NCBI GenBank assembly: GCA_041749515.1
Contig: JBGTBF010000043.1
Location: 85,526 to 149,525, forward strand
Length of the DNA: 64,000 nucleotides
Direction: 5' to 3'
From: Planctomycetaceae bacterium
Lineage (GTDB): Bacteria; Planctomycetota; Planctomycetia; Planctomycetales; Planctomycetaceae
In this document: positions 3,366 to 61,970 of the stretch, in pieces
Numbering within the stretch: the stretch's first letter is position 1
Layout of the letters: each line of letters starts with the position of its first letter
Translations under genes and position numbers: made by a program
Notes under the pieces: model-generated
What the model was told of the DNA's origin: nothing
The model's input: only the letters and a program-made list of their open reading frames with translations
Database searches by the model: none

Positions 3366-3615
3366 GGAAATCGATGCTTTAACTGTAGCGAACGTGTCGA
3401 ACGACGAAGCTATTACGTGCATTCTAAGCTTTCTGTTAGAACAAATCCAGAGAATTTCTCTTTCTGCGAAATGAGGGTGCCTTCTGCACTTTGTGCAACA
3501 GAAAGCCATAAAACGTTCAATACTCCCAAATTCGTAGCTCTCAGCGAGGTTGCACGGCTGCGTGAGATTCCTATTATGGGAAGTCACTTAAAAACTTTTC
3601 AATCAGGAAGCACAG

Positions 3616-36686: not shown

Positions 36687-36717
36687 GTCGCTGACTTCTC
36701 CGAAGTCAGTGGTCAAC
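36687..36717. repeat. Stand-alone copy of the REP-like hairpin module (gtcg-ctgacttc-tcc-gaagtcag-tggtcaac), 8 bp after the SPFH gene stop
   Basis: The stem carries compensatory changes relative to copy A (CTGACTTC/GAAGTCAG versus CTGACCTC/GAGGTCAG). Flanks gtcg…tggtcaac are identical to copy A. Confidence 0.65.
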
Positions 36718-38215: not shown

Positions 38216-38310
38216 CGTAGGATAGGCTTCCAGCCTGTCAGTATTCTAAAAATTAAACATCTCAGAATGAACTGTCAGTTGAGTAGACAGGGTGGAAGCC
38301 TATCCTACGA
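38216..38310. repeat. Long imperfect inverted repeat: 24-bp arms with one mismatch, separated by 47 bp, in a 700-bp intergenic region
   Basis: Left arm cgtaggataggcttccagcctgtc (38216-38239). Right arm gacagggtggaagcctatcctacg (38287-38310). An internal ctgtcagt direct repeat lies in the spacer. Confidence 0.6.
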
Positions 38311-42157: not shown

Positions 42158-43828
42158 TTAATAGACTGAAAAGTTAATCGTTTCAGTCGTTATTTTTCCA
42201 CTGAGATCATCCTGCACTGTGAGTTTCAGCACGTGTGGGCCGGGTACCAAGTGTGTGGGCATGTCGATCCGGTAGCTGTGGTAGTAGTCGGTTCGCGGCG
42301 TTCGACACAGGTCTTCTGTTGGAGGAAAAGCGTTACGATCGACTAGTTTTCCATCCGTTCCACCTTGATAGATTTCTACCACCGACTTTAACTTTGTGCG
42401 GTAATACCCGTCTGTTGTTGGCTCGCTTTGAAAGTTTCTCACCTCCGTGTAGACCAGTACGGGCTGCCCGATGTTGAACTCATTCACCTCAAATTGATCA
42501 TAATTTCCGAAGCTGTTGATCTTGGAACAGAAGGTCACATTCTTGAGTTGCAGGTGCGAGATTTCTTGCAGGTGATGGGCAGCGTTGCGAAGTTGGGCAA
42601 TGGTCATGGTTGCTCGTTCTGCCGGACTGGCTGGCGATTGCTCGTCCAGATAATCAGACAGCCCGACAAACATCGCCGTCCAAAACTCCTGTTCAGCTTG
42701 CGAAATGCCAGGAATCGCCTGTTGTGCAAGTTGAGGTTGATCGCCAACCAAATACAACATCCGTAAGGCCACCTGTTTGCGAACGTCTCCACGAATAGCT
42801 GCACTTCCCGGAAGCAAAGAAGAGGTTTCTGCTTCCAAAAGAGAGATCAACTTATCGAGTTCGTCTTCCCACAATTCAGATCCACGGGGAATTCGTAATG
42901 GAGCAGTGTCGGTTGGCTTTGGCTCTGGAGCGGTGTTCAAGTCGAATTGAAGGGAATCCGATTTTGGCGGTTCCGTACTTTCTACATTTTCAGAAACAGT
43001 ACCTCCGCCACCTAGTATCTTTGGAAGCAAACTCAGATGGTTTGCTGTCTTCTCTTTCTCGGTGGGGGGCTTTTCCCCATTTGTCCAAATGCGTTTGGGG
43101 TCTGCCAATGACTTCAACCGATTTGGCCAACTCTGGTCTTTTACGGGACCGGGAGCTTCTAAACCATCTACAGGGGCATCAGCGTCTTCTGGCTTTAATT
43201 CTTCGCCTGTGGCAGAGTTGTCGATTGAGTTGTTTAGTTCTCGAGTTACATCAGCTTGTGAGCTGTCGTCTTGAGAGCTGTTGTCTGTAAGAGTGGCCTC
43301 TGAACTTGCAGAATTGAACGTGTTCAAACCGCTTCCCGAAACGGTTTGAATCTTTTCGTTTGTCTCAGCGATCACTTCTTCATCGCTTAACGGATTTTGA
43401 ACAACGAGTTTTTCTTTGGGGGCAACTTTTTCCGGTGCTACAGGATCTTCAATCCGGCGGGACTTCAAAATATACGGGACCATTTTTGCATCAACGCTAT
43501 TGAGATAGCTGACCCACTCCATCCGTTCTTCCGGGGGAAGATCTTTCAGTTCGGTATCGATCAATGCTTGCGTGGCTGGATCGTGAACGTTGTTTTGAGT
43601 TCCCTCTGCCACCAAAGGTTCACGGCCTGATTCGGTCGCGACAGGGGGAGTTTCGGCTTCAGATTCTAAAGACGCAGGAGAAGAAACCGGGGCTTCTTTG
43701 TTTTTGTTGAAAGAGGGAAGCGCCAGCCGATTGGGAAATGCAAAACGGGGGCTTCCGCCGATCGAGTTGCAGCCACAACTCATCAGAATCAAAAGTATCC
43801 CAAAGCTATCGACATAACGCCGTCGCAT
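42158..43828 (-). CDS. Hypothetical lipoprotein with an acidic Pro/Glu/Ser-rich low-complexity middle and a structured C-terminal domain
   Basis: N-terminus LLILMSCGCN is lipobox-like. 556 aa. No family recognised. Confidence 0.6.
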   Translation of the reverse strand: MRRRYVDSFGILLILMSCGCNSIGGSPRFAFPNRLALPSFNKNKEAPVSSPASLESEAETPPVATESGREPLVAEGTQNNVHDPATQALIDTELKDLPPEERMEWVSYLNSVDAKMVPYILKSRRIEDPVAPEKVAPKEKLVVQNPLSDEEVIAETNEKIQTVSGSGLNTFNSASSEATLTDNSSQDDSSQADVTRELNNSIDNSATGEELKPEDADAPVDGLEAPGPVKDQSWPNRLKSLADPKRIWTNGEKPPTEKEKTANHLSLLPKILGGGGTVSENVESTEPPKSDSLQFDLNTAPEPKPTDTAPLRIPRGSELWEDELDKLISLLEAETSSLLPGSAAIRGDVRKQVALRMLYLVGDQPQLAQQAIPGISQAEQEFWTAMFVGLSDYLDEQSPASPAERATMTIAQLRNAAHHLQEISHLQLKNVTFCSKINSFGNYDQFEVNEFNIGQPVLVYTEVRNFQSEPTTDGYYRTKLKSVVEIYQGGTDGKLVDRNAFPPTEDLCRTPRTDYYHSYRIDMPTHLVPGPHVLKLTVQDDLSGKITTETINFSVY

Positions 43829-44048
43829 GGCATCCTTGCCGTGACTACAGACTTAATAGTGATGTGATTCTTCAAGATGACTCAACCGAATTCATACAAC
43901 AAGACCAAGTTGCGAGAACTTCTTGAACAACCGTTAAACTTGTAAAACCTGCCGGTCTCGAACAGAGTAACTGAGAAAACAGGTAAAATAGAGGGGATGC
44001 ATATTCGTTGTAAGGTCTATGCAGGGGTCTTATTACTGCATAAGCGTT

Positions 44049-44163
44049 GGAGGTGTGATGACTGCGTTTGAGAAGAAATATGTCATTTGTTATTGGGAAT
44101 TTGTCATTTGTCATTGAAACAACCGGCCGTCTGTCGCTGACCTCTCCGAGGTCAGTGGTCAAC
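44049..44163. repeat. About 115-bp intergenic repeat element (copy A) ending in a REP-like perfect hairpin ctgacctc-tcc-gaggtcag
   Basis: About 85% identical to 61848..61953. Shares the hairpin module with 36687..36717. A partial fourth copy (gtcgctgacctc) lies at 44241..44252. Confidence 0.7.
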
Positions 44164-44329
44164 CAACAACCGGACCTCAACTGTGGAAGCGTGTCTCATC
44201 GCCAAAAAACAAACCACGGAACACGGAGTGCTCCGCGACTGTCGCTGACCTCTTCTTTCTCTGCGAACCAATCCGACTCCGCTCTCAGCGTTTAACAAAA
44301 TTCCCCGCTGGCAACTGGATACCTGTTGT

Positions 44330-44500
44330 AGGGTGCATTCCACACTTTGTAGGTCTCACATTTGAAAAACGCAGGCAAGTTTTGAGGTAACGCATTTCCA
44401 CGAGCCCGCAGCGTTAGCAAGGGATGGACTTTGATTTTTCTCCGTGGCGATCACTTCGGACAACACACCTCGTAAATTTCCCTTGCTGACGCTACGGGCT
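44330..44500. repeat. About 170-185 bp hairpin-forming repeat element, copy 1, bracketed by 19-23 bp direct repeats
   Basis: About 85-90% identical to 52799..52985. Internal 24-bp inverted repeat (44401-44424 / 44469-44492). Direct repeats gcaactggatacctgttgt at 44310-44328 and 44570-44588. Confidence 0.7.
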
Positions 44501-44687
44501 CGTAAAGATGCAACATCCATAACTTGACAATCGACGCAGTCACCCTGCGTTTCATAAAATGTCGCGCTCGCAACTGGATACCTGTTGTTCGGCATCGTCC
44601 AACCTACACACTAAAAGCCACAACGTGCGCAATGCACCCATACAGCGGCACGTTGTAATACTGTCATTCGGGAGGAGCAACTTGAAT

Positions 44688-46874
44688 TTAGCCTAGTGGC
44701 GGCTTGAGCATCGTCAGCCCGATGCGTTTTCTGTCTGCGTCGAGACTGTCGATCCAGACAGTCACAATATCGCCGACACCCACGATTTCATAAGGGGAGG
44801 CAACATAGGTCTTCGACATTTTACTTACATGCACAAGTCCGTCGCCTTTAATTCCAACATCGACGAAGGCTCCAAAATCAACAACATTCGTCACCGATCC
44901 GGTCAGTTCCATCCCCGGTGCAAGGTCTTCAAACGAGAGTACTTCACTGCGAAAGACCGGTCCGGGCAAATCTTCACGCGGATCGCGGCCCGGTTTTAAT
45001 AACGATTGCAAGAGTTGCTGTGCGGTATAGACGTCGGTCTCTAACTCATTTGCCAATTCATCCGCTTTGACGCTGACCATTTTCTCCTGGACTTCCGCTG
45101 GCAGTTTTCCACTTCTCAAATGGTCTTCCTGCAACTCAAATCGGGAGAGCAGCTTTCTGGCGATGGGATAACTCTCGGGGTGAATCCATGTTGAATCCAG
45201 TGGTTCTGGGCCTTCGGGCAGTTTTAAGAAACCGGCTGCTTGCGTATATGTTGCTTCACCGATTCCCGAAACTTGCAGAAGATCTGCGCGCTTTGAAAAC
45301 GGACCATGTTCGTTGCGATAAGCCACGATCTTTTTCGCAATGCTTCTTGAAAGTCCCGAGACATGTTTCAGAAGTTCAACGCTGGCATGGTTCAGGTCCA
45401 CACCAACATGGTTGACGCTCGACTCAACCACCGCAGCGAGAGACGTTTGCAATTGTTTCTCTGAAACATCATGTTGATACATGCCAACACCGATATGTTG
45501 GGGATCGATCTTAACCAGTTCACTCAGCGGATCCTGGAGCCGTCGCCCAATGGAAATCGTGCCTCGCACCGTTGCGTCAAGCTCAGGAAACTCTTCGCGA
45601 CCAGCTTCACTTGCAGAGTACACGCTGGCACCGGCTTCGTTCACAATGATGTACTTGATCCCAAGTTCCCTGGAACTGATTGTCTCTGCGACAAGTGCCT
45701 CGGTCTCGCGCGATGCGGTTCCGTTCCCGATGGCAATCACATCACAACGATGCGTCTTCACCAGCTCGGCCAGCTTCTCCTGCATCGCTTCTTTCTCTGC
45801 CGGTTTGACGACCGAGATCAAATCGCTGGCAAGTACATTGCCATCTTCATCAAGTGCCACAATTTTGCATCCAGTACGATATGCTGGATCAATCGCTAAC
45901 ACGCGTTTCATTCTCAATGGAGGTTGGAGTAACAAGTTGCGCAAGTTTTTGCAGAAGACTTCAATGGCATGTTCTTGGGCTTTGTCGCTGAGATCGCGAC
46001 GAATCTCTCGTTCGATACTGGGATTGATCATGCGTTTGAGAGCATCGTCAACACACTGCACCATGAAGTCACGTGCAGGGTGATTATTGAGTGCAAGCAA
46101 ACCGCCAACGCGAATGTGAGCGAGTTCCTGATCCCACTTGGTACTGACTCGCAATGCCTTTTTATGCTCCCCGCGATCAAGCGCCAGAATGCGATGCGGA
46201 GGAGCTTTGATCAGTACCTCTGAAAACTTCGCGTAGTCCTTAAATGTCTCTGCATCTTTAGATTTTGGAACCAGTTTACTTTCAATGGCACCGGTCTTCC
46301 AGGCGGTGTTGCGAACCACATCGCGAAGATCCGCCCGCTCCGCAATCCGTTCCACAATGATGTCCTGTGTCCCAGTAAGTACAACCTCGACTGACGTCAG
46401 TAAGGGGTGTTTGCCGACACAGTTTTGAGCAACCGCCGGCAACGCGGAGGCGGGTAACTTCCCGTCCCAAATCGCATTCGCCAGTGGGGTGAGGCCCATC
46501 TCACGCGCATCGTCAGCGCGCGTTTTCCGTTTTGATTTAAACGGAGCATACAATTCCTCGAGCCGTTTTAAAGAATCGGCCTGTTCGATTTGCTGCTTAA
46601 GTTCATCCGTCAGCTTACCTTGTTCGACCAGTGCTGCCAGCAGCTTTTCGCGACGATCCGCCAAAGCCCGGATTTCAGCAGCCAGGGACTGAATTGCACG
46701 TATCTGTTCTTCGTCTAGGCCGCCCGTCTGTTCTTGGCGGTACCGCGTAATAAACGGGACTGTGTTTTCGGCATCTAAAAGCTCAAGAGTATTCTTGACT
46801 TTCTTTTTAGCCAGACTCATTTTTTGAGCGATTAGCCGAATCAGATTTTGTTCGAGTTCATCCATGTGATTCAA
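44688..46874 (-). CDS. tex: Transcription accessory protein Tex (YqgF/HhH/S1 domains)
   Basis: N-terminus NLIRLIAQKMSLAKKKVKNTLELLDAENTVPFITRYRQEQTGGLDEEQIRAI is diagnostic. C-terminal S1 domain (…MELTGSVTNVVDFGAFVDVGIKGDGLVHVS…). 728 aa. Confidence 0.9.
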   Translation of the reverse strand: MNHMDELEQNLIRLIAQKMSLAKKKVKNTLELLDAENTVPFITRYRQEQTGGLDEEQIRAIQSLAAEIRALADRREKLLAALVEQGKLTDELKQQIEQADSLKRLEELYAPFKSKRKTRADDAREMGLTPLANAIWDGKLPASALPAVAQNCVGKHPLLTSVEVVLTGTQDIIVERIAERADLRDVVRNTAWKTGAIESKLVPKSKDAETFKDYAKFSEVLIKAPPHRILALDRGEHKKALRVSTKWDQELAHIRVGGLLALNNHPARDFMVQCVDDALKRMINPSIEREIRRDLSDKAQEHAIEVFCKNLRNLLLQPPLRMKRVLAIDPAYRTGCKIVALDEDGNVLASDLISVVKPAEKEAMQEKLAELVKTHRCDVIAIGNGTASRETEALVAETISSRELGIKYIIVNEAGASVYSASEAGREEFPELDATVRGTISIGRRLQDPLSELVKIDPQHIGVGMYQHDVSEKQLQTSLAAVVESSVNHVGVDLNHASVELLKHVSGLSRSIAKKIVAYRNEHGPFSKRADLLQVSGIGEATYTQAAGFLKLPEGPEPLDSTWIHPESYPIARKLLSRFELQEDHLRSGKLPAEVQEKMVSVKADELANELETDVYTAQQLLQSLLKPGRDPREDLPGPVFRSEVLSFEDLAPGMELTGSVTNVVDFGAFVDVGIKGDGLVHVSKMSKTYVASPYEIVGVGDIVTVWIDSLDADRKRIGLTMLKPPLG

Positions 46875-47634
46875 ATCAATTCCAAGAGTTTTCGCTGTGA
46901 TAAACGCATGCTCAAGGAATTGATTATGACTAGCAGAGTCGCATCTGTCACCTCCTCACCCGATTTTTAGTCTCGTGGGTTTCCCCATCGCCGATCAACT
47001 TTGCAAAACTCTGCGTCTGATCGACCTCTGCGTTTCATAAAACTCCTTGATCGCACTCTTCAGCCAGCACCAGCGGATCAAATTCAGCGCGGAGAATTTT
47101 TGCCACAATCACACTTGTACAACCCCACAGCGTTTCGAGTGGTGAGCTTGTCATTCTGCTTCGAGGCGATCACCACGTACCACACATCAGAAATTCGCTT
47201 GACTGATCTGTGGGGTTTGTAGAAATTCGCAATTTAACGATGAATGGCTGGAGTGGAATTCACCAGATTCAATGTGTATTATTAACCGTTGAGTTAAAGG
47301 AGCAACTAAAGTTGGTATACCAATTGCTTTGTTGGCTTTAAGTGACCGGATAGCTGATACTTGAGTGATTTCACATGGAGTTTGTATCAACTTAAACGAG
47401 CATTTGCGCATCGAGTGCGCATTATTGCTCAGAAAACAGGCAACGCCTGATCCAGAACTGCTGCATGATGCAAACATGGTTTCTACTCTTTCACCTTTTA
47501 AAGGGTATAAACTTGAATCCCCGGACGTTCTACCTGGCGTTCGCGCTCAACTCCTTGGATTCTTTTTGAACAGGCAGGGTGCCTGTGAACTTCAGTAATT
47601 TCAGGTGACACAAACAATCGAGAAGGATCATTAC

Positions 47635-49954: not shown

Positions 49955-52645
49955 CTACCGCAATGAGCCTTTCATGCGTTGCAACTCTTGCAACGCAGCC
50001 ATCGGCGTCATTTCGTCGAGGTTGAGACCTTTGATTTCATCGAGTAATGGATGCGGATCAACATCGAACAGCGTGAGTTGTTTACGCCCCACGGTCTTGC
50101 GTTTAGGGATGTCGAATGTGCCCCGGTCGTCATGATGATTGGCTTCGAGTTTATCGAGAATAGTGCCAGCCCGCGTGATCACTTCGCGGGGGACTCCTGC
50201 CAGACGTGCAACATGAATTCCATAGCTTTTGTCCGCTGCTCCGGGAACAATCTTGTGCAGAAAAATCACTTCACCGTTGTTTTCGTGAACCGCCACATTC
50301 CAGTTGCAAACCTGTTTGAGGGTTGTTGGCAATTCGGTCAGTTCGTGGTAGTGTGTGGCAAACAGGGTGCGGCAGTGAATGTGATCGTGGAGGAATTCGG
50401 TGATCGCCCAGGCCAACGAAATGCCATCATAGGTACTTGTCCCGCGCCCAATTTCGTCGAGAATGACAAGACTTTTACTGGTCGCGGTGTTGAGGATGCG
50501 GGCGGTCTCGGTCATCTCGACCATGAACGTTGACTGGCCTTTGCCAAGCTCGTCGCTCGCACCGACTCGGGCAAAGATGCGATCTGCGATTCCGATCGTG
50601 GCACTCTCCGCAGGAATGAACGAACCCATCTGAGCCATCAGCGTTAACAGAGCTGCCTGTCGAATATAGGTACTTTTACCCGCCATATTTGGACCGGTGA
50701 TCAGTGCGATATTCGGCGGTTTCTGATCCTCGAAAGCGTTGTCCGAGTCCACCGCAACACCCAGTCTGATATCGTTGGGAACGAACTCACCGCTGGGTTG
50801 AATCTTATCAAGAACGGGATGCCGACCGTTGCGGATGTTAATCTCCGAGGTATCAACAACGATGGGGCGAACATACCGCTGATTAACAGCAACGCTGGCG
50901 AGGTTGGTCAGCACATCGATCTTGGCGAGGACCTCGGCGGTTCCCAATAGCCGCGTCACTTGTCCCGCCACAAGCTGGCGAAGTTCCGAAAACAACTCAG
51001 ATTCAAGGGCTTTCGATCTGTCTTCCGCACGCAGGACTTTCTCTTCGTACTCTTTGAGCTGCGGCGTGATGAAGCGTTCCTGGTTTTTGAGCGTCTGTTT
51101 GCGAATGTAGTCGTCGGGAACTTTGTTGCGATTTGCGGCGGTCACTTCGAGGTAATAGCCGAATACTTTATTAAAGCCAACTTTCATCGTACTGATGCCG
51201 GTCCGCTCGATTTCCTCTGCCTGATACTTGGCGATCCACTGCTTGCCCCCTTTAGCAAGGTCGCGCAGTTCGTCGAGTTGTTCGTTAAAACCGGTTCGGA
51301 TCATCCCGCCGTCGGTGGTGAGGATCGGCAACTCATCTGCCAACGTTGTTTCCAGGCGTGCGCGAACCTCTGCACACAGGTCGAGTTGCACCTCGAGCGT
51401 CTTCAGTAAATCGGACGACCGCCCCGCGAGTTGGGCTTTCAGCTTGGGGAGTAGAGAGAGTGTTTTAGCGAGCGAACCGAGATCGCGCGGTGATGCGCGT
51501 AGTGTTGCGACTCGCCCCGCAAGTCGTTGCAGATCGTAGGCTTCTTGCAATTGTTCACGCAGATCGCGACAGAGTTTCGTCTCTTTAAAAAACTCTTCGA
51601 CCGCATCCAGACGCCGCGAGATTGCCACGGGATCGGTCAGCGGATTCGAGAGCCAGTCCAGCAACATGCGGGCTCCCATCGGAGTTGCAGTTTCATCGAG
51701 AATGCTGATCAAACTCCCTTCGCGTTTGCCTTCCCGCTGCGTGCGGTTGAGTTCCAGACTTCGCCGTGTTGTTTCATCGATCAGCAGATTGGTGCCGCGC
51801 CGGTATGGTTCCAACTTGGCAATGTGCCCCAGCGACGACTTTTGCGTCTCCTGCACATAGTCCAGCAACGCCCCGGCAGCGGTGATGCCCGCCGAGTCTT
51901 CATCTCCAAGGTCAAAGCCTTCAAGCGTTTTCGTTTTGAAATGATTCAACAACGTCTCGCGACACGGGTTAGCGGCGAAGGCCCAGGGTGGTCGCTGGGT
52001 GACAGCCACTCCCTGCATACTCATCACATGTTGAAACACGGGATGCTCCTTGGCCGACTCAGCGATCAAACACTCGGCTGGATGCACACGGGCCAGTTCA
52101 TCCACAAAAGCAGCCCGGGAATACTCCAAGCTTCCCGAACCATCTTCGCTGCTGGATTCGATCTCCATGCACTGAAACAAACCGGTCGAGAGTTCCAGCC
52201 AGGCCAGTCCGACGCGATCTTTGAATGGACAGACCGCTGCCAGAAAATTGCTTTCTTTAGGGTCGAGAAGCGCATCGTCGGTAAGAGTTCCAGGGGTGAT
52301 AATTCTCGTAATTTCGCGACGGACCAAACCTTTTGCAGTTTTCGGATCTTCGACCTGATCGCAAATGGAGGCTTTGTACCCCGCCGCGATCAGCTTGTGC
52401 AGATAGCCTTCCAATGAGTGATATGGGAAACCGGCCATCGGTACCGGATTGGTGGAAGCTTTGTCGCGGCTGGTCAGGGTAAGTCCGAGAACCTTAGCTG
52501 CGATTTCGGCATCTTCATGAAAGAGTTCGTAGAAGTCGCCCATTCGAAAGAGGAGAATTGTCCCGGGAGTTTCCGCTTTGACTTCCAGATACCGTTGCAT
52601 CATCGGAGTGAGCGGCTTCTCACCAGATTTGTTAAGCTTCGCCAT
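49955..52645 (-). CDS. mutS: DNA mismatch repair protein MutS
   Basis: Mismatch-binding N-terminus (…[11 protein letters not shown]…), Walker [10 protein letters not shown], and C-terminal HTH/dimerisation. 896 aa. Confidence 0.9.
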
Positions 52646-52798
52646 TCGAAATTGGACTTACATGGTAAGGTCCGGGAAAAGGACCGCGTTGTGATGAATT
52701 GGTTTTAAAGAATGAAATGAGGAAAGTATCGGCATACCTTAAATGAGCCATACTTGTTCTGCATTCTAGTTAAAACAACGCATCCGAGAAATGCACCA

Positions 52799-52985
52799 GG
52801 GTGCATTCCGCACTTTGTATGTCTCACACTTGAAATCGCAGGCAAGTTTTGAAGTAACGCATTTCCACGAGCCCGCAGCGTCAGCAAGGGATGGAATATG
52901 GCTTTACTGCGTGGTGATTACTGCGAACAACATACTTCGTACTTCGTAAATTCCCCTTGCTGACGCTACGGGCTCGTGAAAGATG
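52799..52985. repeat. About 185-bp hairpin-forming repeat element, copy 2, in the mutS / DUF1559 intergenic region
   Basis: Aligns with 44330..44500 and has the same internal 24-bp inverted repeat (cgagcccgcagcgtcagcaaggga / ccccttgctgacgctacgggctcg). Confidence 0.7.
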
Positions 52986-53467
52986 TGAGCATTCGTTGAA
53001 AATGACACACTTGAAGTTTGCGTCTGATCCCTCGAACTAAATGTGATCATTTCTGATACATGCTTGTGAATGTGATGCATTTTGAAACGGGGTTTGTATT
53101 AGGCCATTAAATATATGTCACTCGATTCAGCGAGAATAATTTCATCGTGATCACATTTTTTAGAAAAGCACCCACTTGCAAGCGTAGCTGTTTTTTTGAC
53201 TGTACTAGCCTGCTCATCCGGTTTCAGGAGTTTCCTAAGGAAATAGACTCTTGTGGAATACAAATATTTTAACAATATATCAGTGGACGTTGTTCCCGAA
53301 GTTGTATAGAGTAAAATTTGATACGATATTTATAGGAACTTCATCATGTATGCTCGAATTATTCCTACTTCGGTACAATATTTGATAATCTTTTCTTTTC
53401 GTATCATAGAACGACTCTGCTGTTATGAGAATTTGTTACATATTTTAGCCCCTTTTTGGAGACTCAC

Positions 53468-54535
53468 ATGAAGCGAACTTTACGTAAAGGTTTTACTCTG
53501 ATTGAATTGCTGGTGGTGATTGCTATTATCGCAATTTTGATCGCATTGCTGTTGCCAGCTGTGCAACAGGCACGTGAAGCGGCCCGCCGTACACAGTGCA
53601 AAAACAATTTTAAGCAATTGGGCTTGGCTTTGCACAACTACCACGATGTGTTTGGACGTTTTGTCTACCGTAAAGGTGGATCTGACGGAAACGCAGCAAC
53701 GCCACGCGGCAATAGCAATCGCCTGTCTGGTTTCATGGCTTTAATGCCATACATCGACCAGGCTCCCCTTTTCAACAAAGTGGCTGCTGGTGGTGGAACA
53801 GGCGCTAAGCCTCCCGGTGGACCAGAAGGTTGGGCTGGCTGGGCTGAATGGGATGTTACAATTCCAGCGGTTGCTTGCCCGTCTGACGGTTTGAATGGAG
53901 ATCAACGTAGATCAACAAGCTACCTGTTCAATATGGGTGATTCAGCTATTAACGTTCGGGACGATCGCAACACGCGCGGTATGTTTGCCTACCAGCGTTG
54001 CGTTAAAATGCGTGACGTAACTGATGGAACGAGTAACACGATTGCAATGAGCGAAGGTGTACAAAGTACCGATTTCGCCCCAGTGACGACGACTGCTGGC
54101 AGCCATCAGTACATTAACACAATTGCTATGGGAGTTGATCCCCGAACAAATCCAGGTGCTTGCCTGGCTCTGAAGAGTGGATCATACTGGGTGACTGGTA
54201 CTTCCGTTAAAGGACGTCGTGGTCGTGCGATGTGGGATGGTCAAGCAGAACGGACCGGCTTTAGCACAATTTTGCCACCTAACAGTCCATCATGTGCAGA
54301 AGGCGCAAACACGAATGCAGACTCAGTACACGTTGCTTTGGCACCTTCCAGCATGCATGTCGGCGGTGTTCAGGTGCTGATGACCGATGGAGCTGTTCGC
54401 TTTATCAGTGAAAACATCGACACTGGCAACCTCGCTGCTGCAAATCCAGCTCAGAACTCCAACGGCGCTAGCCCATACGGAGTTTGGGGATCCCTTGGAA
54501 CTAAAGGTGGAGGCGAAGTTATCGGCGAATTCTAA
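53468..54535 (+). CDS. DUF1559 protein with prepilin-type N-terminal cleavage/methylation domain (Planctomycetes H-X9-DG family)
   Basis: [60 protein letters not shown] is the family's near-invariant N-terminus. RBS ggag. The TTG at 53456 listed in the track is unlikely. Confidence 0.85.
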
Positions 54536-61707: not shown

Positions 61708-61847
61708 AGAATTTCCAGAGACAAATGTCTGAGATGGGTACATTCGGCGTTTTGAATGAGTCACGCTTGAGCGTTTTTGGTCCTGTGTTTTCTTAAACGC
61801 AGAGGGTGCGGTGATGCGGAGCATCGCAGATGGCTTTCCAGCGCGAT

Positions 61848-61953
61848 GGAGGTGTGATGATCGCGTTTGGAATGAAAGAAGATTTGTTATTGGGAGTTTT
61901 TCATTTGTCTTTGAAACATTTGCAGACGGTCGCTGACCTCTCCGAAGTCAGTG
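61848..61953. repeat. About 105-bp intergenic repeat element (copy B) ending in a REP-like hairpin ctgacctc-tcc-gaagtcag
   Basis: Aligns with 44049..44163, including the conserved ggaggtgtgatga and atttgttattggga blocks. Confidence 0.7.
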
Positions 61954-61970
61954 GGGCATTAACGCAAGCA

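Follow-up and report, generated by a model that had tools for sequence, protein, structure and literature searches.

Two copies of an intergenic hairpin repeat were found in a 64,000-nt stretch of contig JBGTBF010000043.1 (GenBank assembly GCA_041749515.1, positions 85,526 to 149,525, forward strand) from a bacterium of the family Planctomycetaceae; this whole stretch is referred to below as the window, and positions are counted from its first nucleotide. The hairpins are probably inverted doublets of a planctomycete unit similar to repetitive extragenic palindromic (REP) sequences, resembling REP doublets forming hairpins (REPINs), belonging to a class 3-type family and accompanied by a 62-nt 5' module. 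On this reading, both doublets are additional members of a known, under-described REP/REPIN kind, and not a miniature inverted-repeat transposable element (MITE) or an RNA gene, as a preliminary description of the window had suggested. The observation behind that description was confirmed, and the class of non-autonomous mobile elements, which it also named, is reasonable; what it missed is that the arms of the hairpins belong to a REP-like family present across Planctomycetota and tied to HUH-Y1 (RayT-like) genes.

Structure of the element

The element consists of the following parts.

44330–44511, plus strand: element copy 1 (182 nt), composed of the 5' module, left unit, spacer and right unit; the bounds are the limits of homology with copy 2
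52798–52985, plus strand: element copy 2 (188 nt), with the layout of copy 1; the bounds are the limits of homology
44392–44424, plus strand: left REP-like unit of copy 1, foot GCATTTCCACGA and core AGCCCGCAGCGTTAGCAAGGG (core at 44403–44423)
44479–44511, minus strand: right REP-like unit of copy 1, inverted, foot GCATCTTTACGA and core AGCCCGTAGCGTCAGCAAGGG (core at 44480–44500)
52859–52891, plus strand: left REP-like unit of copy 2 (core at 52870–52890, AGCCCGCAGCGTCAGCAAGGG)
52953–52985, minus strand: right REP-like unit of copy 2, inverted (core at 52954–52974)
44425–44478 (54 nt, copy 1) and 52892–52952 (61 nt, copy 2), plus strand: spacer, or hairpin loop

In blastn, positions 44330–44510 and 52798–52985 are 85.2% identical over 189 columns (E 8e-57), and in the MAFFT alignment of the whole element, with gaps counted, the identity is 82.5%; the two copies are real, with an identity of 82–85% (about 85–90% as first given). 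Indels of 1, 7 and 1 nt distinguish them, and the spacer of copy 2 contains a 7-nt tandem duplication, TACTTCG. Homology ends sharply on both sides, the flanks being just 30% and 15% identical. The spacer is the least conserved part of the element (69% between copies, versus 97% for the left unit and 95% for the M motif of the 5' module, described below), as would be expected if function or recognition resided in the units. No open reading frame (ORF) is common to both copies, which contain short unrelated ORFs only, in agreement with the earlier statement that the repeat is not an insertion sequence.

The inverted repeat is also real, with other dimensions than the 24 bp and spacing of about 44 bp originally reported: the arms comprise about 33 nt, separated by spacers of 54 and 61 nt. 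Arms of 24 nt lie 54 nt (copy 1) and 61 nt (copy 2) apart, while the 28-nt arms of the repeat search lie 56 and 63 nt apart. In copy 1 the long hairpin arises by pairing of the right unit with the left one. The folds of the two copies have energies of -72 to -83 kcal/mol on both strands (z -5.0 to -7.2), and none of 200 shuffles was as good; that a long hairpin can form had been noted in the preliminary description. The two positions at which the arms mismatch each other in the long hairpin are unpaired positions of the single-unit fold. A search of the window with the arm pattern returned exactly four units, all of them in the two doublets, with 0 expected by chance.

The REP-like unit and its occurrence in other genomes

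Each arm is represented by a 12-nt foot, GCATYTYYACGA, ending in ACGA, and the 21-nt core AGCCCG[C/T]AGCGT[C/T]AGCAAGGG. As a single strand, the core AGCCCGCAGCGTCAGCAAGGG is predicted to form a small and weak stem-loop, in which a purine-rich internal loop separates a CCC/GGG outer stem from a GC/GC inner stem closed by a G-T-N-A loop. This predicted fold, ......(((...((....))..))).., is identical to the fold in Table S1 of Quentin et al. (2018, BMC Genomics 19:475, PMC6006769), where class 3 TnpA_Y1 transposases were described mainly from Planctomycetes, Acidobacteria and Proteobacteria, with genes flanked by atypical REP-like hairpins carrying a CnGA foot. The same table contains two class 3 units of Planctomyces limnophilus, CACGAGCCGGAAGCGTGAGCGACGGGT and ACGAGCCGGAAGCGTCAGCGACGGGC, with which the window unit CACGAGCCCGCAGCGTCAGCAAGGGAT shares 21 of 27 and 20 of 25 positions, respectively (78–80%), including the same CACGAGCC start, the same AGCGTNAGC centre (AGCGT-N-AGC) and the same foot.

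In 99 units whose sequence was not forced by the search pattern, substitutions gather at core positions 7, 8, 12, 13 and 17, which are unpaired in the predicted fold. The inner stem is paired in all 19 hand-picked units of alignment A4, with changes of GC to CG and of CG to UA, and the innermost pair of the outer stem is C-G in the window unit and G-C in P. limnophilus. Paired cells account for 83% of this alignment versus 71% in shuffles, and double changes were found in 3 of the 5 pairs. The sample being small and hand-picked, positional variation and covariation are supportive of the modelled fold, not conclusive.

The 20-mer CCTTGCTRACGCTRCGGGCT was found at no fewer than 110 loci in a scan of contigs with one genome per species, nearly all of them in Planctomycetota. 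The matches listed include Pirellulaceae, Gemmataceae/Limnoglobus, Planctomycetaceae, Thermoguttaceae, Lacipirellulaceae, Singulisphaera and Stieleria, and, among the same matches, two metagenome-assembled genomes (MAGs) of Planctomycetota contain dozens of loci each (about 45 in CAZZBI01 and about 20 in DAORMC01). Elsewhere the units occur as singlets, as perfect short-loop hairpins (Gemmataceae) and as tandem arrays with a period of 30–47 nt; long-spacer doublets within larger repeats were found in the MAG of Planctomyces sp. D1. A search of the literature for the unit sequence string found no paper. In the scan of a metagenome collection, the junction of the 5' module and the unit gave 0 matches, and the unit with the ACGA foot was found at 6 loci, in arrangements other than that of the window. 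The planctomycete hairpin had no match in the plasmid collection.

Several features of these matches, which were fetched as loci numbered with the prefix L, were recorded in addition. Head-to-tail arrays of units are present in the Pirellulaceae MAG CAZZBI01 (L009, L030, L064, L067, L069 and L099), as well as at L134 (22–226) and L129 (6435–6545); an example is CCCTTGCTGACGCTGCGGGCTGGGAGGGCACGGAGAC, with a 37-nt period. In MAGs with high GC content such arrays give rise to spurious long ORFs, which cluster in all-against-all BLAST. Exact units were also found on contigs binned outside Planctomycetota (L016, L026, L044, L065, L084, L095, L105 and L107), in bins of Acidobacteriota, Rhodothermales, Bacteroidales, Granulosicoccaceae, Alcaligenaceae, Pseudolabrys, Lachnospiraceae and Pseudomonadales. 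Some of these contigs look like misbinned planctomycete DNA, namely L084, with tandems of the Limnoglobus type, and L026, with an HUH-Y1 gene; other such matches may be due to chance or horizontal transfer. The version of the unit characteristic of Legionella and Solibacter, CCGAGCCGCGACCGTAAGGGAGCGGA, was found at L119–L122, in records of Legionella adelaidensis filed as plasmids in PLSDB. There the units occupy short intergenic gaps just after housekeeping genes, and no transposase was found within 4 kb of them. These 'plasmid' records look like chromosome fragments, as they carry core genes, among them those of ATP synthase and ribonucleotide reductase.

HUH-Y1 genes linked to the unit

A gene of the HUH-Y1 type was found next to the unit at L026 by means of a loose motif filter followed by Pfam. 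The ORF of 158 aa has a weak match to the Pfam family Y1_Tnp (E 3e-4) and carries the motifs NHMH, WWAERGS and Y-T-M-E-R-Q. The exact window core AGCCCGCAGCGTCAGCAAGGG, the left core of copy 2, is located about 27 nt upstream of its ATG, and an inverted unit, AGCCCATAGCGTCAGCAAGGG, directly follows its stop codon. A total of 1396 homologues, about 158 aa long, were found for the protein. Several of those from Crateriforma conspicua, Planctomycetaceae, Thermoguttaceae and other Planctomycetota are named in their sources 'REP element-mobilizing transposase RayT' or 'transposase'. N-H-x-H, WW-A-E-R-G-S and Y....Q are invariant in the alignment of the family (A6).

Units flank the gene at 8 of 8 distinct loci (L026, L123/124, L125/126, L128, L129, L131/133 and L134). 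Besides L026, seven further loci, from two Crateriforma strains, three MAGs and metagenome contigs, carry units of the form AACCCGA[C/A]GCGT-N-AGCGAGG[G/A] on both sides of the gene, as single units, short-loop doublets or arrays of up to five. These gene-flanking units differ from the window core mainly at variable positions; of the eight gene loci, L026 is the one with the exact core.

Proteins of the 158-aa family score 20–31 bits against the NCBIfam models of IS200 and REP_Tyr_transpos (RayT), the cut-offs of which are 55 and 80, and scores below the cut-off on both models fit with a third class. The family is related to, yet outside, IS200 TnpA and canonical RayT, and it appears to fit class 3 TnpA_Y1, the signature of which is NHVH, W[TA] and Y----Q (PMC6006769), as matched by the motif descriptors of that work and not by its sequences or hidden Markov model. 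A search of PDB sequences with the profile of the family gave no match.

No HUH-Y1 gene of this family was found in the other 121 loci; that few were found near units is as expected if there is one to a few per genome. A strict regular expression and phmmer with IS608 and YafM queries returned no HUH gene, nor was any present among the ORFs between paired units in L002, L039, L070 and L113, and clustering of unit-adjacent ORFs yielded only spurious ORFs running through repeat arrays.

Genomic context, 5' module and direct repeats

The following features are located within and around the two copies.

44331–44351 (copy 1) and 52799–52819 (copy 2), plus strand: M motif GGGTGCATTCCRCACTTTGTA, 95% identical between copies
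44352–44391, plus strand: linker of copy 1 (40 nt), containing CGCAGGCAAG, 87.5% identical between copies
44288–44329, plus strand: direct repeat 1 (42 nt), immediately adjoining copy 1 on its 5' side and 86% identical to 44547–44588
44547–44588, plus strand: direct repeat 2, separated by 36 nt from copy 1 on its 3' side, the last 19 nt being the same as in repeat 1
44619–44639, minus strand: inverted copy of the M motif (GGGTGCATTGCGCACGTTGTG), 48 nt past the tex stop codon, on the tex strand
44688–46865, minus strand: tex, with Tex domains; copy 1 is intergenic, downstream of tex
49955–52645, minus strand: mutS, flanking copy 2
53456–54535, plus strand: DUF1559/N-methyl gene, flanking copy 2

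The Tex domains and the assignment of mutS confirm the neighbours named in the preliminary description. The other neighbour of copy 1 is a gene for a protein of 556 aa with no Pfam match, and copy 2 is intergenic, upstream of both mutS and the DUF1559/N-methyl gene. The neighbouring genes of the two copies are unrelated; therefore, the repeat is not a gene-carrying segmental duplication, a possibility that had been raised earlier as a check. The organism has no closely related sequenced genome: the best matches of its Tex are 69% and 67% identical, and the match in Planctomicrobium is 57% identical. In the orthologous loci of the nearest relatives (L111 and L112, Tex 69% and 67%), no synteny downstream of tex and no units were found.

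The 62-nt module, which is conserved and not REP-like, is present on the 5' side only of the duplicated block. Its M motif is a small hairpin, with an 8-bp stem that forms on the plus strand only and needs G-U pairs. Apart from any unit, the M motif was found at 3475–3495 (plus strand) and 44619–44639 (minus strand), with 0 matches expected by chance, and weak M-like matches are located at 61737 (plus strand) and 52783–52807 (minus strand). The fetched loci of other genomes contain no match to the M motif. In the M-type motif GGGTGCATTNNGCACNTTGTR the stem halves are conserved and the 5-nt loop is variable, and it is present with and without the REP doublet; two copies of the M-type motif lie 30–50 nt after stop codons, in sense orientation. 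A reading of the M motif as a sigma-54 or sigma-70 promoter was rejected, since spacing and consensus do not fit. The linker sequence CGCAGGCAAG, at 44370–44379 and 52838–52847, equals the unit halves CGCAG and GCAAG with the CGTCA loop segment missing between them; decay of a third unit through internal deletion may account for the likeness, or chance may.

The direct repeats around copy 1, described at first as 19–23 bp long, are real and extend over 42 nt; they are 86% identical overall and do not differ in the last 19 nt. The 3' part of direct repeat 1, GCAACTGGATACCTGTTGT, is a small imperfect palindrome. As had been observed, copy 2 lacks such flanks: no counterpart of the direct repeats was found there. 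The 19-mer was found in 0 of the 122 loci of other genomes. A candidate third copy at 47028 consisted of a 15-nt match alone (E 0.06) and was dropped. The whole intergenic region downstream of tex, 859 nt long, is a mosaic of at least five repeat types, no fewer than four of them belonging to other families than the element. The direct repeats are probably pieces of this mosaic, and the 5' module, too, is taken to derive from short intergenic repeats of other kinds.

Proposed origin and alternative explanations

By analogy with REP and their REP-associated tyrosine transposases (RAYTs) and with IS200/IS605, the most likely mechanism is that an HUH-Y1 enzyme encoded elsewhere in the genome would recognise the folded units on single-stranded DNA and would nick and rejoin at the unit feet. 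Nicking and rejoining would keep the units uniform, and now and then a doublet would be copied to a new intergenic site without target-site duplication. On the same analogy, the source genome would carry such a gene, its product would act on the units, and the second copy would have arisen in this way. The window also contains a canonical GTAG-footed REP doublet (GTAGGATAGGCTTCCAGCCTGTC) at 38217–38239 (plus strand) and 38286–38308 (minus strand), with a 46-nt spacer, and GTAGGATAGGCTTCCAGCCTGTC closely resembles the subclass 2.7 REPs GTAGGACAGGCTTCAGTCTGTC of Table S1 (PMC6006769). Consequently, REP doublets of such geometry exist in the source genome, which probably also has a classical RayT/REP system.

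A number of observations weigh against an origin as class 3-type REP doublets. The fold of the single unit is thermodynamically no better than that of shuffles (z about 0); the weak energy of the class 3 unit fold was also remarked by Quentin et al. (PMC6006769). The covariation was drawn from 19 sequences of few clades, membership in class 3 was judged from published motif descriptors alone, and the 64-kb window contains no HUH-Y1 gene, the cognate enzyme being assumed in the source genome. Two doublets only, diverged by 15–18%, are present in 64 kb, unlike a recent REPIN burst, and the nearest relatives (67–69% Tex identity) are not syntenic at the site. A pure REPIN model predicts no non-REP sequence such as the 62 nt on one side, and insertion of the HUH type makes no duplications such as the 42-nt direct repeats, which are thus not accounted for. 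Finally, REP–RAYT pairs normally diverge between species, and it is unusual among them for a 20-mer to be exactly conserved in different planctomycete orders.

The best placed of the alternatives, which we nevertheless regard as doubtful, is a passive structural element: the units would act as RNA or DNA, in mRNA 3'-end stability, in blocking read-through or in binding nucleoid or topoisomerase proteins, and copy 2 would have arisen by recombination or gene conversion between intergenic mosaics and not by transposition. Such structural roles are known for the REP clusters and bacterial interspersed mosaic elements of E. coli. Both copies are intergenic, copy 1 lies within the 859-nt region dense in other repeats, the hairpin is highly stable on both strands, the copies differ by 15–18%, and the duplicated block includes non-REP sequence, all of which would suit this explanation; so would the related units of Legionella adelaidensis, located just downstream of genes with no transposase nearby. 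However, the sharp ends of homology are more typical of insertion than of mosaic recombination, and copy 2 does not occupy a 3' end but is upstream of both its neighbours. The hairpin lacks a following U-tract, there being no T-run after it on either strand, and terminator-like sites show no enrichment; the scan for intrinsic terminators was empty at the element. The tight linkage of the unit to HUH-Y1 genes argues for an enzyme-driven origin. A passive structural role is compatible with REP origin, as a REP can be both.

Another possibility, unlikely in our view, is that the unit and its HUH-Y1 partner form an ancient, vertically maintained host system that serves the cell, for instance in chromosome organisation, replication-linked processing or control of RNA 3' ends, and that is no selfish repeat. 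Identity of the 21-nt unit in at least four planctomycete orders and the number of homologues of the partner, about 1400, could be marks of such a system. If this were true, the M hairpin, the linker and the doublet would be a functional module and not a by-product.

It is quite improbable that the copies are members of a small RNA gene family, with the M motif and linker as promoter and 5' end and the hairpin as an RNA body of about 120–150 nt. Conservation of the 5' module (M motif 95%, linker 87.5%), formation of the M stem on the plus strand only, the same orientation and strong folds of both copies and the absence of an ORF are what such genes would show. Against this, Rfam returned only two tRNAs at gathering thresholds in the whole window and, at E up to 10 in the region 43800–44720, two microRNA models only, far below thresholds and at the level of noise. 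No sigma-70-type promoter or terminator was found above shuffle expectation, the minus strand folds as well as the plus strand or better, and where the stems of the two copies differ, the changes do not compensate for one another. Moreover, the arms are a generic unit, found in all orientations and arrangements in other genomes, the M motif also stands alone, and the composite junction has no match in the metagenome collection.

The weakest explanation is that a DDE transposase or site-specific recombinase inserted a MITE or an attachment-site (att) element, the direct repeats of 19–42 nt being the target or att core; it is very improbable, and the MITE and att readings of the preliminary description were rejected because terminal inverted repeats are lacking and no flanking duplication is common to the two copies. 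The direct repeats around copy 1, with the same last 19 nt, are in its favour, and the inverted M motif at 44619–44639 could be read as the terminal inverted repeat of a 309-nt element, 44331–44639. However, the ends of the shared 182–188-nt block, AGGGTGCATT... and ...CGTAAAGATG, are not inverted repeats, the termini AGGGTGCATTCC... and ...GGGCTCGTAAAGATG are unrelated, and the inverted repeat is internal, confined to the 3' two-thirds. The duplication at copy 1 extends over 42 nt, is imperfect and encloses 36 extra bases, unlike a transposase target-site duplication, and copy 2 has none. The inverted M-like sequence of copy 2 lies directly upstream (52783–52807), on the other side than in copy 1, so that no architecture of terminal inverted repeats and target-site duplications fits both copies. 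The window ORFs examined include no integrase or DDE transposase gene, and the 19-mer is, as stated, confined to this genome among the loci compared.

Comparison with known systems

The REP-like doublets of the window are closest to the class 3 REPtron-like systems (PMC6006769). Common to both are the foot ending in ACGA, as in P. limnophilus, the outer stem, the purine-rich loop, the 2-bp inner stem and the GTNA loop; in some genomes other than that of the window the units are dispersed in high copy number, and in other genomes they flank small HUH-Y1 genes with NHxH, W-A and Y....Q; the host family, Planctomycetaceae, is that of P. limnophilus. In contrast, the window contains orphan units in a long-spacer inverted doublet with a 5' module and no gene, the core departs, in part by compensatory changes, from the versions of P. 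limnophilus, Solibacter and Legionella, and the typical length of the associated protein is 158 aa versus a mean of 178 in that description.

With the REPINs of the REP/RAYT systems of E. coli and Pseudomonas (class 2 TnpA_REP) the doublets share two inverted REP units with a spacer, which form a long hairpin, the doublet with its spacer as the apparent unit of duplication, intergenic location and lack of target-site duplication; the presumed mobiliser is likewise a single-copy HUH-Y1 protein acting in trans. REPINs, reportedly since the work of Bertels and Rainey in 2011, are inverted REP doublets mobilised by RAYTs. Unlike REPINs, the doublets have no GTAG foot, the associated protein scores 20–31 bits versus the RayT cut-off of 80, only two diverged copies are present, and the duplicated block is asymmetric. 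The canonical GTAG doublet at 38217–38308 represents a different family from the class 3-type doublets.

Similar to IS200/IS605 and palindrome-associated transposable elements are the subterminal imperfect hairpins, the action of HUH-Y1 on single-stranded DNA, the lack of target duplication and the existence of non-autonomous derivatives. The gene linked to the unit, however, is flanked by repeated identical units, often arrays, and not by distinct left and right ends, falls below the cut-off of the IS200 model and is not accompanied by tnpB.

The Rhodopirellula-1 motif of Weinberg et al. (2010, PMC2864571) is a multi-copy variable-loop hairpin of planctomycete intergenic regions flagged as a possible repeat. 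With AACAA..GGAU..GAAC...GUUAUCC..UGACGUU at its base, it resembles neither the unit nor the M motif nor the direct repeats; this motif and Solibacter-1 of the same work were considered and set aside as different sequences.

REP/REPIN elements and their HUH-Y1 partners are already well known, and an outline of the class 3 variant dates from 2018, so that the present findings add little to biology. They help to avoid the annotation of such hairpins in planctomycete genomes as MITEs, small RNA genes or spurious small ORFs, and provide a sequence definition, AGCCCG[CA][AC]GCGT-N-AGC[AG]AGGG, of a repeat family common in MAGs of Planctomycetota. The unit is tied directly to a compact, uncharacterised HUH-Y1 family, the substrate of which is easy to guess, and its conservation across planctomycete orders might be of interest to specialists.

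Other repeats in the window

Two further repeat types were annotated in the intergenic regions. A composite repeat of about 120 nt is present at 44044–44163, downstream of tex, and at 61843–61959, between the aldo/keto reductase and Mg-chelatase-like genes; its copies are 83–94% identical in blocks and end in the hairpin GTCGCTGACC, for which, as for the M motif, the fetched loci of other genomes gave no match. A third hairpin family, GTCGCTGACYTCTCCGARGTCAGTGG, with an 8-bp stem and a TCCG loop, is represented at 36687–36712, 44133–44158 and 61929–61954, all on the plus strand, with a half-copy at 44236–44253, and was not matched in any fetched locus of another genome. Between its copies a compensatory exchange of T-A and C-G was observed, with one C·A intermediate.

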